A stretch of 64,000 nucleotides of DNA from an uncultured Sulfurimonas sp. (GTDB taxonomy: Bacteria > Campylobacterota > Campylobacteria > Campylobacterales > Sulfurimonadaceae). The notes beneath the pieces were generated by a model. It saw only the letters and a program-made list of their open reading frames with translations. It was not told where the DNA came from and made no database searches. Shown here in pieces: positions 12,372 through 16,716 of the stretch; the first letter of the stretch is position 1, and every line of letters begins with the position of its first letter. The DNA is taken from NCBI GenBank assembly GCA_963662755.1, contig OY759725.1, forward strand, positions 941,781 to 1,005,780, written 5' to 3'. Made by a program: the position numbers and the translations under genes.

Positions 12372-14609
12372 TTACAGCTCTAAAAGAACAGTATCTCGCC
12401 TTGTTATTTCAAACTTTTTACAAGCACTCTCAAAAGCACCGCTCTCACCTATGAGTATACACTTATGTTTTGCTCTTGTAATTGCTGTATAGATTAGTTT
12501 AGTATTGTGCATAATGAAGTGAGAAAAACTCATAGGAATAACTACGATATCATACTCCATACCTTGAACTTTATGAATAGTTAAAGCGTAAGATAACATC
12601 AGATGCGACTTTATCTCTTCATACTCATAAACTACTACAACATCTTCATTTGGATAAAATACGAACACTTGCTCATCGTCTTCTTCTATCTTAAAAAGAA
12701 GTCCGCTCATACCGTTAAAGATGCGTCTTTGGTTTGAGTCTTCACCCATCTTAAATCCATCACCACTCCATGAAGTCATGTTTTCATTTTTAGTGTGAAC
12801 TACCTTATCCATAAGTCTAAATTCACTACCGCCTTTTTTAACGCACTTTTTAGGATTTGGGTTGAAGTACTCTTGTAAAACTGTGTTAAGATTGTTTGAA
12901 CCAAGTGTTCCGCCCTTCATAGGTGTGATGACTTGAAAGTAGTTTAGATACTCTTTTATCTGCTTATTTTTAAGTCTATATCTTGCTTTTTCAACTGACT
13001 CTACAACTTTATGAACTATCTCTGTAACTATCTCATGAGCATTTTTTTCTCTTAAATTTTGTTGTTCTTGCGTAGAGAGTTGATTTTTTATAGCATAGTA
13101 GTTCTGGATGCTAATATCTATAAACTCAAAATCCTCGTAAGGGAGTTTATATTCAGGAACTTCTCCCTTGCGGATATCATTTGCTATTAAAGTTATAGCT
13201 TGGTCTTCGCTTTGTCTATAAATCTTTGTAAGTTTAACTATGGGAGCTAACTCCAAAGTAAGAACATCACTTAAAACATTTCCCGCACCAATAGGAGGAA
13301 GCTGTGCATCATCTCCAACAACTATAACGATAGCATCTCTATGAACCTTAGCCATAAGTCTTGCAAAAAGCGAAGAGTTAATCATAGATGCTTCATCTAT
13401 CAAAACAACTTTAAAAGGAAAATCATCTCTATCTTCATACTTAACTAAAAGAGACTGTATAGTCGCACTCTCATAACCGGTTGTATCTGCTATGCGCTGA
13501 GATGCGATGCCACTTAAGGCACAAGTCATTATCTCTTTTTCATCATATCTTGTATTTAAAAGTTCTAAAATTGTCTTTGAAGTTGTACTCTTACCCGTTC
13601 CTGCGTAACCAACTAAAAATAGTATAGATGCACCCTCGTTTATCTTAGCAACTGCTTCTCTTTGTTGCTCTCCAAGTTTTAACTCTTTTGTTGCCAAAAA
13701 TTCATCTAAGTTCTTAACAAATCCACCACTATCTTTTTTAGCTCTTGTGCTAAATGTATCGTGCAAATACTTCTCTGCATCATAGAGTCTTGCGGGAGAA
13801 ACTCTATCGTTTTTCATTATAACTATGCTTTGCTCACTAACTCTTTCTATAAGTGCTGCTTCATAAAGATTTTGTTTGTCGTTAAAACCTAGAAGTTCAT
13901 TTAGTCCTGAGAAAAGTATATCTTTTGCAACACAGCTATTTCCTTGCTGTTCACAGTAGTTCATAAGAACATAATCCATTGCTGAGCTGATGCGGTTTTC
14001 ATCTTCTGGAGTTACCCCCATTTTAAGTGCAAGTTCATCTGCTCGCTTAAAGCCTATGGAGTTTATGGAAGTTAAAATGTAAGGATTTTCTTTTATTTTA
14101 GTACATGGTTCATCTACATCTTTCATAGCAGATGCTATGGTTGTTAAAAGTGCTTGAGAGACATCATAAGGGCTTAAAAACTCACCTAGTTTTCTCATGG
14201 AGCGAAACTTCTTCCATGAAGTTTGAATCTTTTTAAGACGCTTTTCTTTGATACCTTTAAACTCTAAAAGTCGCTCTATATCATTGTCTAAAATATCTAT
14301 GAGTTTTTCATTACCAAAATGCTCTATAAGTTCGCTTGAGAGTTTTTTTGTAAAACCTTTTACGATTTTATTTAAAAAGAAAAATAGTTGATTTTGATTT
14401 ACTTTGATGGAGTCAAATTTAAAAGTCTTACCATACTTTTTATGTTCTTCCCAAAAGCCACTAAGAGTTATGGCAGAACCTTTTATATGAGAGACTTCAC
14501 TCTCTAAGTAAGTACCACTTATCTTTTCACCTGTTTTTAAAACAGCAATGAAAAACCCCTCATCTTCAAATAAAATTCGATCTATTTGACCAATGAGAGT
14601 TGTACTCAA
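12372..14609 (-). CDS. recD2: ATP-dependent RecD2-like DNA helicase (SF1B)
   Basis: TTG start; N-terminal OB/HhH region, Walker A GYAGTGKST, IDEASM, GDDAQLPPIG and YALTIHKVQGMEY. Confidence 0.92.
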   Translation of the reverse strand: MSTTLIGQIDRILFEDEGFFIAVLKTGEKISGTYLESEVSHIKGSAITLSGFWEEHKKYGKTFKFDSIKVNQNQLFFFLNKIVKGFTKKLSSELIEHFGNEKLIDILDNDIERLLEFKGIKEKRLKKIQTSWKKFRSMRKLGEFLSPYDVSQALLTTIASAMKDVDEPCTKIKENPYILTSINSIGFKRADELALKMGVTPEDENRISSAMDYVLMNYCEQQGNSCVAKDILFSGLNELLGFNDKQNLYEAALIERVSEQSIVIMKNDRVSPARLYDAEKYLHDTFSTRAKKDSGGFVKNLDEFLATKELKLGEQQREAVAKINEGASILFLVGYAGTGKSTTSKTILELLNTRYDEKEIMTCALSGIASQRIADTTGYESATIQSLLVKYEDRDDFPFKVVLIDEASMINSSLFARLMAKVHRDAIVIVVGDDAQLPPIGAGNVLSDVLTLELAPIVKLTKIYRQSEDQAITLIANDIRKGEVPEYKLPYEDFEFIDISIQNYYAIKNQLSTQEQQNLREKNAHEIVTEIVHKVVESVEKARYRLKNKQIKEYLNYFQVITPMKGGTLGSNNLNTVLQEYFNPNPKKCVKKGGSEFRLMDKVVHTKNENMTSWSGDGFKMGEDSNQRRIFNGMSGLLFKIEEDDEQVFVFYPNEDVVVVYEYEEIKSHLMLSYALTIHKVQGMEYDIVVIPMSFSHFIMHNTKLIYTAITRAKHKCILIGESGAFESACKKFEITRRDTVLLEL

Positions 14610-15497
14610 CTACTCAATCTCCAAAGCTTTATCAACACAAGCTTTTAGAGAAGTATTCTCTGCTATAAAAGGTTTTATATACTCTGGAAAATACTTTGCT
14701 GTTGTTTTTCCTATGGAAATAGCCTTATAGGAGTTATCCCATGAATAAACTTTAAAAAAGTATTTTATTGTTGATGGTGATGAGAAAATAATTTTAGAGT
14801 TTTTTGGTAAAACTTTTTTTTCATCTTGTTCTTTAAAATTATTTTCATAAACAATAACATCATCACACTCAATGCCATTGCTATTTAAAATATTTATCAA
14901 ATCCGAAACTACTTCTCTAGCTCTTATATATAAAACTCTTTTTCCTTTAAGCTCTGGCAAAATTTCATAAGCAAACTCATCTCCATGCCTTTTTTTACTA
15001 GAAAACTCAAGTTTTCCATTAAAGTCCTTAATGAGTTTTGCAGTTTGTTCTGAAATAGCATAAGAAGGGATTTTTCTCCACTCTTTATTTATAGACTCAA
15101 CTGCTAAAACACCATTTTTTGAGCTAAAAATAAGTGCATCATATTTTGAAAAATCTATATACTGTTTTATATATTTTATTTCAAAAAGAGGTATATTTTT
15201 TGCAAATTTTACTTTTTCATCGTTTAATAAGTAGATGTTTTGTTTTTTATATTCCATATATTTTAAAAGTTTTTGAAAGTTTTTTCTTAAAGAGAATTTT
15301 TGTTTTGCAAAGGCTATAGACTTATCTTTTAAAACTTTAAATTGAATATTTTGTTTTGTTAAATGGTAAGTGATTTTAAAAAACTCAAGTTCTATAAATC
15401 TGTTTGAATACTTTGTATCATAAAAGAGAGTCTTTGTTTTTTTGTCGTATTCGTAGTATATTAAGTTTAACGGATTGATTATTTTTTGTATATTCAC
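14610..15497 (-). CDS. hemD: Uroporphyrinogen-III synthase with an N-terminal extension of about 85 aa
   Basis: LIFSSKNGV, IVYEN, IIFSSPSTIKYF and ISIGKTTA HemD motifs; GTG start after ggagag. Confidence 0.8.
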   Translation of the reverse strand: MNIQKIINPLNLIYYEYDKKTKTLFYDTKYSNRFIELEFFKITYHLTKQNIQFKVLKDKSIAFAKQKFSLRKNFQKLLKYMEYKKQNIYLLNDEKVKFAKNIPLFEIKYIKQYIDFSKYDALIFSSKNGVLAVESINKEWRKIPSYAISEQTAKLIKDFNGKLEFSSKKRHGDEFAYEILPELKGKRVLYIRAREVVSDLINILNSNGIECDDVIVYENNFKEQDEKKVLPKNSKIIFSSPSTIKYFFKVYSWDNSYKAISIGKTTAKYFPEYIKPFIAENTSLKACVDKALEIE

Positions 15498-15513
15498 AAC
15501 TCTCTCCCAAATA

Positions 15514-15534
15514 AAGTGTTACATTATAACACTT
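15514..15534 (-). promoter_or_regulatory. hemD promoter -10 (TATAAT at 15529-15524) embedded in an inverted repeat (possible operator)
   Basis: AAGTGTTA-catta-TAACACTT, a perfect 8-bp inverted repeat overlapping TATAAT. Confidence 0.5.
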
Positions 15535-15584
15535 CATTAGTAATCAATTCTAACTAAAAATTTTGAATATACAAATCAATATGC

Positions 15585-15590
15585 TATAAT
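15585..15590 (+). promoter_or_regulatory. Extended -10 promoter (tgcTATAAT) for the putative antisense RNA
   Basis: Perfect TGnTATAAT with no plus-strand gene downstream; points across the small minus-strand ORF. Confidence 0.6.
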
Positions 15591-15596
15591 TTTGGC

Positions 15597-15740
15597 AGTT
15601 GGGACAATTGAGGAGCGCTAACTCCCCAAAAGCTTTTAATATAATCTTAATTCTATGAGAACTAAAATTATAACAATTACGAATGCTAGTCGCATTGTTA
15701 CATCCTTTAGTTAAAGGCTGACCCTGTCCCACCTTCCACC
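15597..15740 (+). ncRNA. Putative cis-antisense antitoxin RNA (Sib/IsoA-like); ends approximate
   Basis: Would start about 6 nt after TATAAT and cover the toxin ORF and its SD; gggaca (15601-06) can pair with tgtccc (15725-30). Confidence 0.45.
15636..15695 (-). CDS. Putative type I toxin, 19-aa Ibs-like hydrophobic peptide MRLAFVIVIILVLIELRLY (missing from the ORF track)
   Basis: AAAGGA SD 7 nt upstream of ATG at 15695; TAA at 15638-15636; hydrophobic core; length and composition resemble E. coli Ibs peptides. Confidence 0.65.
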   Translation of the reverse strand: MRLAFVIVIILVLIELRLY

Positions 15741-15781
15741 TTACAATGCCAAAATCATCATAACCGCCAACTGACAATATG

Positions 15782-15787
15782 ATTCTA
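15782..15787 (-). promoter_or_regulatory. -10 element (TAGAAT) for the putative toxin mRNA
   Basis: TAGAAT lies 6 nt before G15775, where the terminal inverted repeat begins, and downstream of the glyQ terminator. Confidence 0.5.
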
Positions 15788-15811
15788 GTACAATTTTTAT
15801 AGATTATCTAA

Positions 15812-15834
15812 ATATATGACAAATTGTCATATAT
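15812..15834 (-). terminator. Hairpin after glyQ, probable terminator
   Basis: atatatgacaa-a-ttgtcatatat inverted repeat immediately after the glyQ stop. Confidence 0.55.
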
Positions 15835-16716
15835 CTAAGCTTTTACCCTCTTGATTCTATCGGCTTCTTGAGCTTTATAAAGCTCTGCACACCCTTTTGA
15901 GAGGTCACGGATTTTAAGAATGTAGTTTTGTCTCTCAGTTTGTGAGATGGCTTTTCTAGCATCTAGGACATTAAATGTGTTAGATGCTAACATACAAAGG
16001 TCATAAGCAGGAAGAGGAAGTTCAGCCTCCAATGCTCTTTGACACTCTTGAGCTTTTGCATTAAAATCAGCAAAAAGCATATCTGTATCTGCTACTTCAA
16101 AGTTGTACTTTGAAAACTCTATCTCGCTCTCTTTATGGACATCTTTGTAAAGTGTTTTTCCATGTTCGTTCTCACCCCACACAATATCAAAAACATTATC
16201 AACACCTTGAAGATACATCGCAAGTCTCTCAGTTCCATAAGTAATCTCAACAGCTACAGGGTTACACTCGATGCCACCAACTTGTTGAAAGTAAGTAAAC
16301 TGAGTAACTTCCATACCATTTAACCATACTTCCCAGCCAAGACCCCAAGCACCCAAAGTTGGAGATTCCCAATTGTCCTCTACAAAACGAATATCGTGCT
16401 GTGAAACATCAAGACCTAAATACTCTAATGATTTTAAGTAGAGCTCTTGAATGTTATCTGGAGATGGTTTGATAAGTGCTTGAAATTGATAGTATGAACC
16501 AAGTCTATTTGGGTTTTCACCATACCTTCCATCCGTTGGACGACGTGATGGTGCTACATAAGCAACTGACCAAGGTTGTGAATCTAGTGAACGTAAAAAA
16601 GTAGCTGGATGAAATGTTCCTGCACCTGCTGGGATATCGTAAGGCTGAACTATATTACACCCTTGTTTCATCCAAAATTCTTGAAGTTTTAGTAGCATCT
16701 CGCTAAATGTTATCAT
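15835..16716 (-). CDS. glyQ: Glycine-tRNA ligase alpha subunit
   Basis: [42 protein letters not shown] and [12 protein letters not shown]; start moved to MITFSE at 16716. Confidence 0.97.

Follow-up and report, generated by a model that had tools for sequence, protein, structure and literature searches.

A candidate type I toxin-antitoxin module between glyQ and hemD of an uncultured Sulfurimonas sp. and its relatives in Campylobacterota

We analyzed a 64,000-nucleotide (nt) stretch of DNA from an uncultured Sulfurimonas sp. (GenBank assembly GCA_963662755.1, contig OY759725.1, positions 941,781 to 1,005,780), here called the window. The gap between its glyQ and hemD genes holds one copy of an element of about 182 nt, which we read, with a probability of about 0.8, as a chromosomal type I toxin-antitoxin (TA) module of a new family present in Sulfurimonas, Sulfurovum, and Sulfuricurvum. 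The basis for this reading is comparative sequence evidence throughout: a conserved open reading frame (ORF) for a small hydrophobic peptide, its Shine-Dalgarno (SD) site, the fold of the RNA, the promoters, and the dynamics of copy number. From this evidence we infer transcription of both strands, toxicity of the peptide, and the mode of action of the antitoxin. A first-pass annotation of the window had proposed that the locus is a chromosomal type I TA module missed by gene callers, and the proposal is supported by the ORF, SD site, facing promoters, and 5'-3' pairing, which are kept in about 90 copies. Its description of the locus also agreed with ours: the gap is 337 bp long, the ORF runs from 15695 to 15636, and the sequence AAAGGA (15708 to 15703) stands 7 nt before it.

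The tiny, poorly conserved genes of type I TA modules make these modules difficult to detect, and most families described so far are from enterobacteria, Firmicutes, and Helicobacter. Our literature search found no type I toxin linked to Sulfurimonas or Sulfurovum. The element would add a family in free-living chemolithoautotrophic Campylobacterota of vents, seeps, redoxclines, and sediment. Moreover, its approximately 90 natural variants give a covariation-backed model of toxin-mRNA silencing, which is rare for a type I system before any experiment, and the locus could be used to test whether the origin of Ibs/Sib-like modules was ancient, horizontally transferred, or convergent.

The peptide gene and its relatives

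A BLAST-type search of related genomes gave copies of the element in nine genomes of the same genus, with two copies in some of them. From ten copies found in this way we built a covariance model, R1. Full-length matches to R1, scoring 130 to 195 bits, were present in 46 of 194 Sulfurimonas species genomes (24%), at one to five copies per genome, some of them in tandem. Among 401 sampled genomes of the order Campylobacterales, R1 had matches in only 4 of 96 genera, and nothing was found in the sampled genera outside the Sulfurimonas and Sulfurovum groups. Seven of 201 sampled Sulfurovaceae genomes (3.5%) had matches, with up to 12 copies each. When the most conserved 20-mer of the element was used as an exact pattern, with one genome per species, it retrieved 87 stretches, almost all from Campylobacterota; the source labels were Sulfurimonas, Sulfurovum, Sulfuricurvum, and unclassified Campylobacterota. 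Three odd labels among the 87, all on metagenome-assembled genomes, are probably binning errors.

The homologue and covariance-model searches showed that the ORF and its hydrophobicity, on which the first-pass annotation had staked its claim, are preserved in all 92 distinct copies. The ORF encodes exactly 19 amino acids (aa) in 80 of these and 20 aa in 6, and the stop codon is TAA in 89 of 91 copies. The peptide consensus is M-[RQHK]-L-x-[IL]-[IV]-I-V-I-[ILV]-L-[LM]-L-L-[AE]-x-[RK]-[LVA]-Y, a design that consists of an N-terminal M-R, a hydrophobic core of 12 to 13 residues, and a C-terminal x-R/K-x-Y. Column entropies at codon positions 1, 2, and 3 were 1.00, 0.50, and 1.02, respectively. 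Thus, the substitutions have a period-3 pattern with the second position half as variable as the others, and T is nearly fixed at second codon positions through the hydrophobic core.

Multiple copies, tandem arrangement, and a patchy distribution are usual in known type I modules, and the copies described here agree with those modules in all three. The tandem arrays, which occur in relatives and not in the window's genome, have a period of about 310 to 490 nt. In 11 or more Sulfurimonas species, copies of one lineage come immediately after glyQ, with hemD as the other neighbor only in the window's genome; other copies adjoin genes for a phage-type integrase, an IS200-like transposase, a RelE toxin, or an MNT-type nucleotidyltransferase. 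In a further Sulfurimonas species a decayed copy is located downstream of glyQ (L012 1461-1590). What is left of it is the palindrome (described below), the region of the toxin promoter, and ∼15 nt from the start of the mRNA (TTGTCAGTTGGCGATT), and a DpnI-family restriction gene (Pfam DpnI, 6.5e-71) stands where the rest of the module would be.

We also recorded arrays of two or three modules in several relatives (G202:C22:1218-3011; L048 871-1682; L092 115-920). Some Sulfurovaceae genomes have 9 to 12 copies (12 in G438), and most genomes of that family have none. A weak R1 match elsewhere in the window's genome (G000:C1:1581772-1581959) was considered as a second copy and rejected as a paralogue, having no ORF and aligning poorly.

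Structure of the predicted mRNA, promoters, and antisense RNA

The minus strand of the element folds with an energy of -58.3 kcal/mol (z = -5.5), and none of 200 shuffled sequences folded as well; the value for the plus strand is -32.4 kcal/mol (z = -2.1). We used two alignments, a 10-copy MAFFT alignment that was not fitted to structure (A1) and a 96-copy alignment (A2). RNAalifold predicted 47 pairs from A1, 11 of which have compensatory changes. In the A2 consensus fold, 96.1% of cells are paired, versus 87.4% in shuffles and 32% to 53% when the partners are slid, and there are 405 double-change cells versus 106 expected. Many pairs are invariant G-U pairs, which identifies the minus-strand RNA as the one on which selection acts. 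The features of the element are listed in Table 1.

Table 1. Positions of the features of the element and its immediate surroundings in the window
Feature	Coordinates	Strand	Evidence
Structured toxin mRNA unit, predicted (5' untranslated region [UTR], ORF, 3' UTR)	15594..15775	-	End-to-end match to covariance model R1, 191.8 bits, E = 2.5e-42
Candidate toxin ORF, 19 codons plus TAA, encoding MRLAFVIVIILVLIELRLY	15636..15695	-	Intact hydrophobic ORF in 92/92 distinct copies
SD site AAAGGA, 7 nt before ATG	15703..15708	-	AAGGA or AGGAG kept 7 to 8 nt before ATG in relatives
Predicted toxin mRNA -10 box TAGAAT	15782..15787	-	Promoter scan
Predicted antisense (antitoxin) promoter: TTGAAT, 16-nt spacer, TG-n-TATAAT	15563..15590	+	10/12 positions, extended -10
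Predicted cis-antisense antitoxin RNA	15597..15737	+	Start inferred from the -10 box; 15737 taken only from a Sib-like length of ∼140 nt
5' arm CAGUUGG of the 5'-3' closing helix, pairing with CCAACUG (15602..15596)	15767..15773	-	Minimum free energy (MFE) fold
5'-UTR segment UGGCAUUGU, pairing with ACAAUGCGA (15698..15690) and hiding the start codon	15743..15751	-	MFE fold
5'-UTR stretch pairing with codons 5 to 8	15766..15756	-	Single-sequence fold
Most conserved 20-mer, GGUGGGACAGGGUCAGCCUU, in the 5' UTR	15714..15733	-	Near-invariant in A1 and A2
Hairpin inside the 3' half of the ORF	15640..15672	-	6/10 pairs changed on both sides (A2)
3'-UTR hairpin UUGGGGAGU ... GCUCCUCAA	15608..15629	-	9/9 pairs changed on both sides, helix 98% paired (A2)
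23-nt perfect palindrome ATATATGACAAATTGTCATATAT	15812..15834	-	Immediately past the glyQ stop, with a U-rich run after it (minus strand)

The two ends of the predicted mRNA pair with each other. The terminal inverted repeat pointed out by the first-pass annotation (CAGTTGG, 15596-15602; CCAACTG, 15767-15773) is present, and its 5'-3' pairing covaries: in A2 the closing helix is 96.7% paired, and two of its pairs have compensatory CG<->UA changes in 26 copies each. The closure is present in 81 of 89 copies folded singly. Together with the hairpin in the ORF and the one in the 3' UTR, this helix is among the best supported of the fold. The helix that hides the start codon is 92.5% paired, and its closing pair covaries (GC<->UA). 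This helix and the second long-range helix of the 5' UTR, on codons 5 to 8, are together 91.2% paired, versus 22% to 49% when slid, and they covary even though they are absent from R1. Both compete with an invariant local hairpin, GUAACAAU/AUUGUUAU.

When the 89 copies were folded singly, the AUG was paired with the upstream UTR in 70 and the SD site was mostly free in 73. Across the 89 copies, the probability of being unpaired was 0.14 for the AUG, and the mean unpaired value of the SD site was 0.72. These results place the lock on the AUG and not on the SD site. Thus, in the modeled folds the main translational lock is the hiding of the AUG by a covarying 5'-UTR helix, and sequestration of the SD site is not predicted to dominate. 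The first-pass annotation had instead put the SD site in a hairpin. The palindrome that would form it, CCTTTAACTAAAGG, does exist at 15704-15717, but the CCUUU/AAAGG hairpin is outside both the MFE and the consensus folds and is seen only in an alternative fold that is less stable than the MFE fold by 5.5 kcal/mol. That alternative fold also pairs the 3' tail of the mRNA with GGGACAG, which includes the internal GGGACA that had been noted, correctly, at 15730 to 15725. The pairing of the 3' tail with GGGACAG, the alternative state of the switch proposed in the first-pass annotation, is possible in 96.4% of cells yet invariant, so covariation is uninformative about it. As conserved structures, neither the SD/anti-SD hairpin nor the 3'-tail/GGGACAG pairing gained support from covariation.

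Within the conserved 20-mer are an SD-like GAAGGU, the anti-SD CCUUU, and the GGGACAG that is the complement of the 3' tail. The 20-mer lies in a purine-rich, SD-like run of the 5' UTR, GGUGGAAGGUGGGA (GAGGAGGAAGGUGGGA in many relatives; 15714-15745), which is the most conserved part of the element, exceeding the ORF. This run may be an anti-anti-SD or a ribosome standby site.

The promoter consensus scan gave 9 sites, versus 3.7 ± 1.8 in shuffles. Among these sites were the two facing -10 boxes reported in the first-pass annotation, TAGAAT (15787 to 15782, minus strand) and tgcTATAAT (15582-15590, plus strand). Of 82 copies, 35 have a perfect sense -10-like hexamer and another 30 have one that matches at 5 of 6 positions; it is mostly 9 to 10 nt ahead of xTTGG. 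The antisense TATAAT, pointing into the element 7 to 9 nt before GTTGGG, is perfect in 79 of the 82, with TG at -15/-14 in 53. Sequence conservation ends just beyond each -10 box, so that the unit is bounded by the two boxes. In the classical type I arrangement a strong antitoxin promoter stands opposite a weaker toxin promoter; judged by their matches to consensus (79 versus 35 perfect -10 boxes among 82 copies), the predicted promoters have this strong-antitoxin, weak-toxin arrangement.

These features suggest the following mechanism. The TAGAAT promoter, moderately strong and weaker than the antisense one, would drive a minus-strand mRNA of about 180 nt. The 19-aa peptide would presumably insert into the inner membrane and be toxic once made. 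As the mRNA folds during its transcription, the AUG would be captured by a 5'-UTR segment already made; the two 5'-UTR segments would pair with the start codon and with codons 5 to 8, and the paired ends would close the finished mRNA, leaving it translationally silent. From just past the 3' end of the mRNA, the extended -10 promoter on the plus strand would fire into the module. The 5' end of the resulting antisense RNA, AGUUGGGACA, would be complementary to the 3' tail of the mRNA; its first 10 to 11 nt, predicted to be single stranded, are complementary to CUGUCCCAACU. The complement of the 3'-UTR hairpin would form a 5'-proximal hairpin in the antisense RNA and so allow a loop-loop contact. 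The length of the antisense RNA would decide whether it covers the 3' UTR alone or the entire ORF and SD site. The pairing would presumably stop ribosomes, make a duplex that RNase III cleaves, or both.

Relation to known type I systems and alternative explanations

By analogy, the module probably functions like Ibs/Sib with the addition of a 5'-3' lock of the hok/aapA type. IbsC of E. coli K-12 is MMRLVIILIVLLLISFSAY. The peptide encoded here shares with the Ibs peptides a length of 18 to 19 aa, a start of the form M-(M)-R/K, a hydrophobic core, and a Tyr as last residue. In E. coli the distance from the toxin stop codon to the antisense start is 35 to 39 nt (39 nt for sibC and ibsC), and it is predicted to be about 39 nt here. 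In both systems the stop codon is followed by a purine-rich GC hairpin, and ahead of the SD site stands another hairpin, whose 3' arm is of the GCCUUU type. The tandem period, 335 and 376 nt in E. coli, is similar to the range given above for the relatives. There is also a difference: R/K at position 17 is invariant in the family described here, whereas IbsC is listed as having no C-terminal positive charges (PMC8309996).

A profile-profile alignment to Ibs (hhalign) put residues 3 to 19 in register with a probability of 86.5%, and only 1 of 200 whole-column shuffles (0.5%) scored as high. However, when only the columns of the hydrophobic core were shuffled, 15.5% scored as well. Because such core-only shuffles often reach the same score, the similarity to Ibs lies in layout and overall design, not in residue order. 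With a hidden Markov model (HMM) built from IbsA to IbsE, the window peptide scored 3.0 bits, which is inside the shuffle range; the average was 4.4 bits for real peptides and -0.3 bits for shuffles, and the top scores of the two sets were alike, near 12 bits. Run against 12 kb of E. coli DNA, R1 gave its best match at ibsA/sibA, end to end and in the right orientation (L138 1306-1491), but at only 9.8 bits (E = 0.27). We observed that in this alignment the 5' hairpin, SD site, ORF, and 3' hairpin are in register and that the start of sibA is near the antisense start predicted by the model.

The Pfam Ibs_toxin model (PF13956, cutoff of 27 bits) had no match in the window's genome at E ≤ 10, and the E. 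coli control passed. In the 401 Campylobacterales genomes nothing exceeded the cutoff, and the only matches were at noise level; four small ORFs under such matches in other genera of the order were inspected and rejected as not convincingly Ibs-like. A search of positions 15300 to 16000 with all 4227 Rfam families, on both strands at E ≤ 10, gave no Sib and two chance-level matches to unrelated families. Thus, of the term "Ibs-like" used in the first-pass annotation, the layout and geometry hold up, but neither Pfam Ibs_toxin nor Rfam recognizes the locus. We do not place the element within Ibs/Sib; homology to Ibs is no more than a possibility, and the likeness would be one of layout and geometry only. 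It is possible, though we doubt it, that the family is a true but deeply diverged branch of Ibs/Sib in Campylobacterota that carries a 5'-3' lock in the style of hok and aapA. The AGUUGGGACA of the antitoxin, the mRNA 5' end AGUUGG, and an internal mimic, GGUGGGACAG, would then compete for the 3' tail of the mRNA, and the antitoxin would act by strand displacement at that end.

Whatever its descent, the module that we propose shares features with other type I systems. As in hok/Sok of plasmid R1 and aapA1/IsoA1 of Helicobacter pylori, a long-distance 5'-3' interaction is combined with a sequestered translation start, both of which are backed here by covariation; the aapA/IsoA host belongs to the same phylum. 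The antisense RNAs of those two systems are directed against the 5' part of the mRNA (T1TAdb paper, PMC8594479), whereas the predicted antisense promoter of the element is at the mRNA 3' end. Their peptides are also longer (50 and 30 aa, compared with 19 aa), and their activation by 3' trimming was not reproduced in silico for the Sulfurimonas mRNA. The predicted geometry, convergent genes that overlap at the toxin 3' end, is that of TxpA/RatA, BsrG/SR4, Fst/RNAII, and SprA1/SprA1as. Overlap at the 3' end has been described as confined to Gram-positive families (PMC8594479); by contrast, the host here is Gram negative, and the peptide is shorter. Finally, AapC1/2-IsoC of H. pylori has been reported to consist of apparent Ibs homologues (Fozo et al. 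2010, PMC2887945; review PMC13584709). By description alone it resembles the element in being Ibs-like and in having a Campylobacterota host; R1 had no match outside four of the Campylobacterales genera sampled.

Several results weigh against the type I reading. The promoter and terminator scan predicted a terminator on neither strand. When the 3' end of the mRNA was trimmed in silico by 8 to 45 nt, the probability that the AUG is unpaired stayed at 0.14 to 0.17, and no route to activation was evident. The pooled ratio of nonsynonymous to synonymous variation (pN/pS) was 0.57, which points to purifying selection of no more than moderate strength, and the RNA structure accounts for some of the nucleotide conservation in the ORF. 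Lastly, no curated toxin or antitoxin model (Rfam, Pfam Ibs_toxin, NCBIfam) recognizes the element, and Pfam and NCBIfam gave no relevant match to the 20-aa variants of the peptide; at its length, the gene escapes curated protein and RNA models.

Alternatively, the ORF could encode a nontoxic, conserved small membrane protein, for instance one with a regulatory or accessory role, whose expression a cis-antisense RNA would tune. The ORF, SD site, fold, and antisense promoter would suit any tightly repressed small membrane protein, and the copy lineage behind glyQ is stable across its 11 or more species. We nevertheless consider this explanation unlikely: the patchy presence, expansion to 9 to 12 copies, and tandem arrays fit selfish TA modules better than a housekeeping peptide, as do neighbors such as an integrase, a transposase, and other TA genes, and silencing of translation in multiple layers is typical of toxins. 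Less likely by some distance is that the element is a noncoding structured RNA, or a repeat resembling a miniature inverted-repeat transposable element, in which the ORF is incidental. It does have the size (∼180 nt), the terminal inverted repeats (7 to 9 bp), the multiple copies, and the varied locations of such a repeat. But the ORF is fixed at 19 to 20 codons in 86 of 91 copies, and T at second codon positions in the core, the SD site, and the TAA stop amount to a period-3 constraint beyond RNA structure alone. In addition, the strand-specific G-U pairs imply selection on RNA rather than on DNA, and no copy was found in the collections of plasmids, phages, and viral contigs. A known RNA (6S or signal recognition particle RNA), suspected because the ends are paired, was rejected after Rfam gave none in the gap at E ≤ 10 and none window-wide at the gathering score. 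A TTG-initiated minus-strand ORF of 75 aa (15550-15777) spans the whole element, and gene finders could call it a hypothetical protein. That it is a real gene is hardly credible: the frame is open in the window's genome, but a stop-free stretch of at least 75 aa is present on that strand in only 8 of 87 copies (median, 51 aa), and the frame is not conserved.

Flanking genes and upstream palindrome

Both flanking genes are on the minus strand. The gap extends from the stop codon of glyQ (15835) to the start of the listed hemD ORF (15497). The genes were identified by their matches to Pfam tRNA-synt_2e (glyQ, 7e-141) and HEM4 (hemD, 4e-29).

The palindrome that follows glyQ is not peculiar to that gene. 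Its motif, ATGrCAwwTTGyCAT, occurs in 18 of 92 copies at a fixed place about 40 to 55 nt upstream of the predicted mRNA start, and some of these copies are away from glyQ. The palindrome is probably an upstream terminator or insulator, or else an operator, ahead of the toxin promoter.

On the other side of the gap, the hemD ORF (14610-15497) has a GTG start and encodes 295 aa, and the match to Pfam HEM4 begins only at residue 102. The real start of hemD may be further downstream, e.g., at an internal MEYKK, which would make the noncoding gap longer than 337 bp. The next gene in the window, adjoining hemD, encodes a RecD2-like helicase (12372-14609). In G014, a different Sulfurimonas species, neither glyQ nor hemD is in the neighborhood, and the toxin module has an orthologue of this helicase gene as its direct neighbor.

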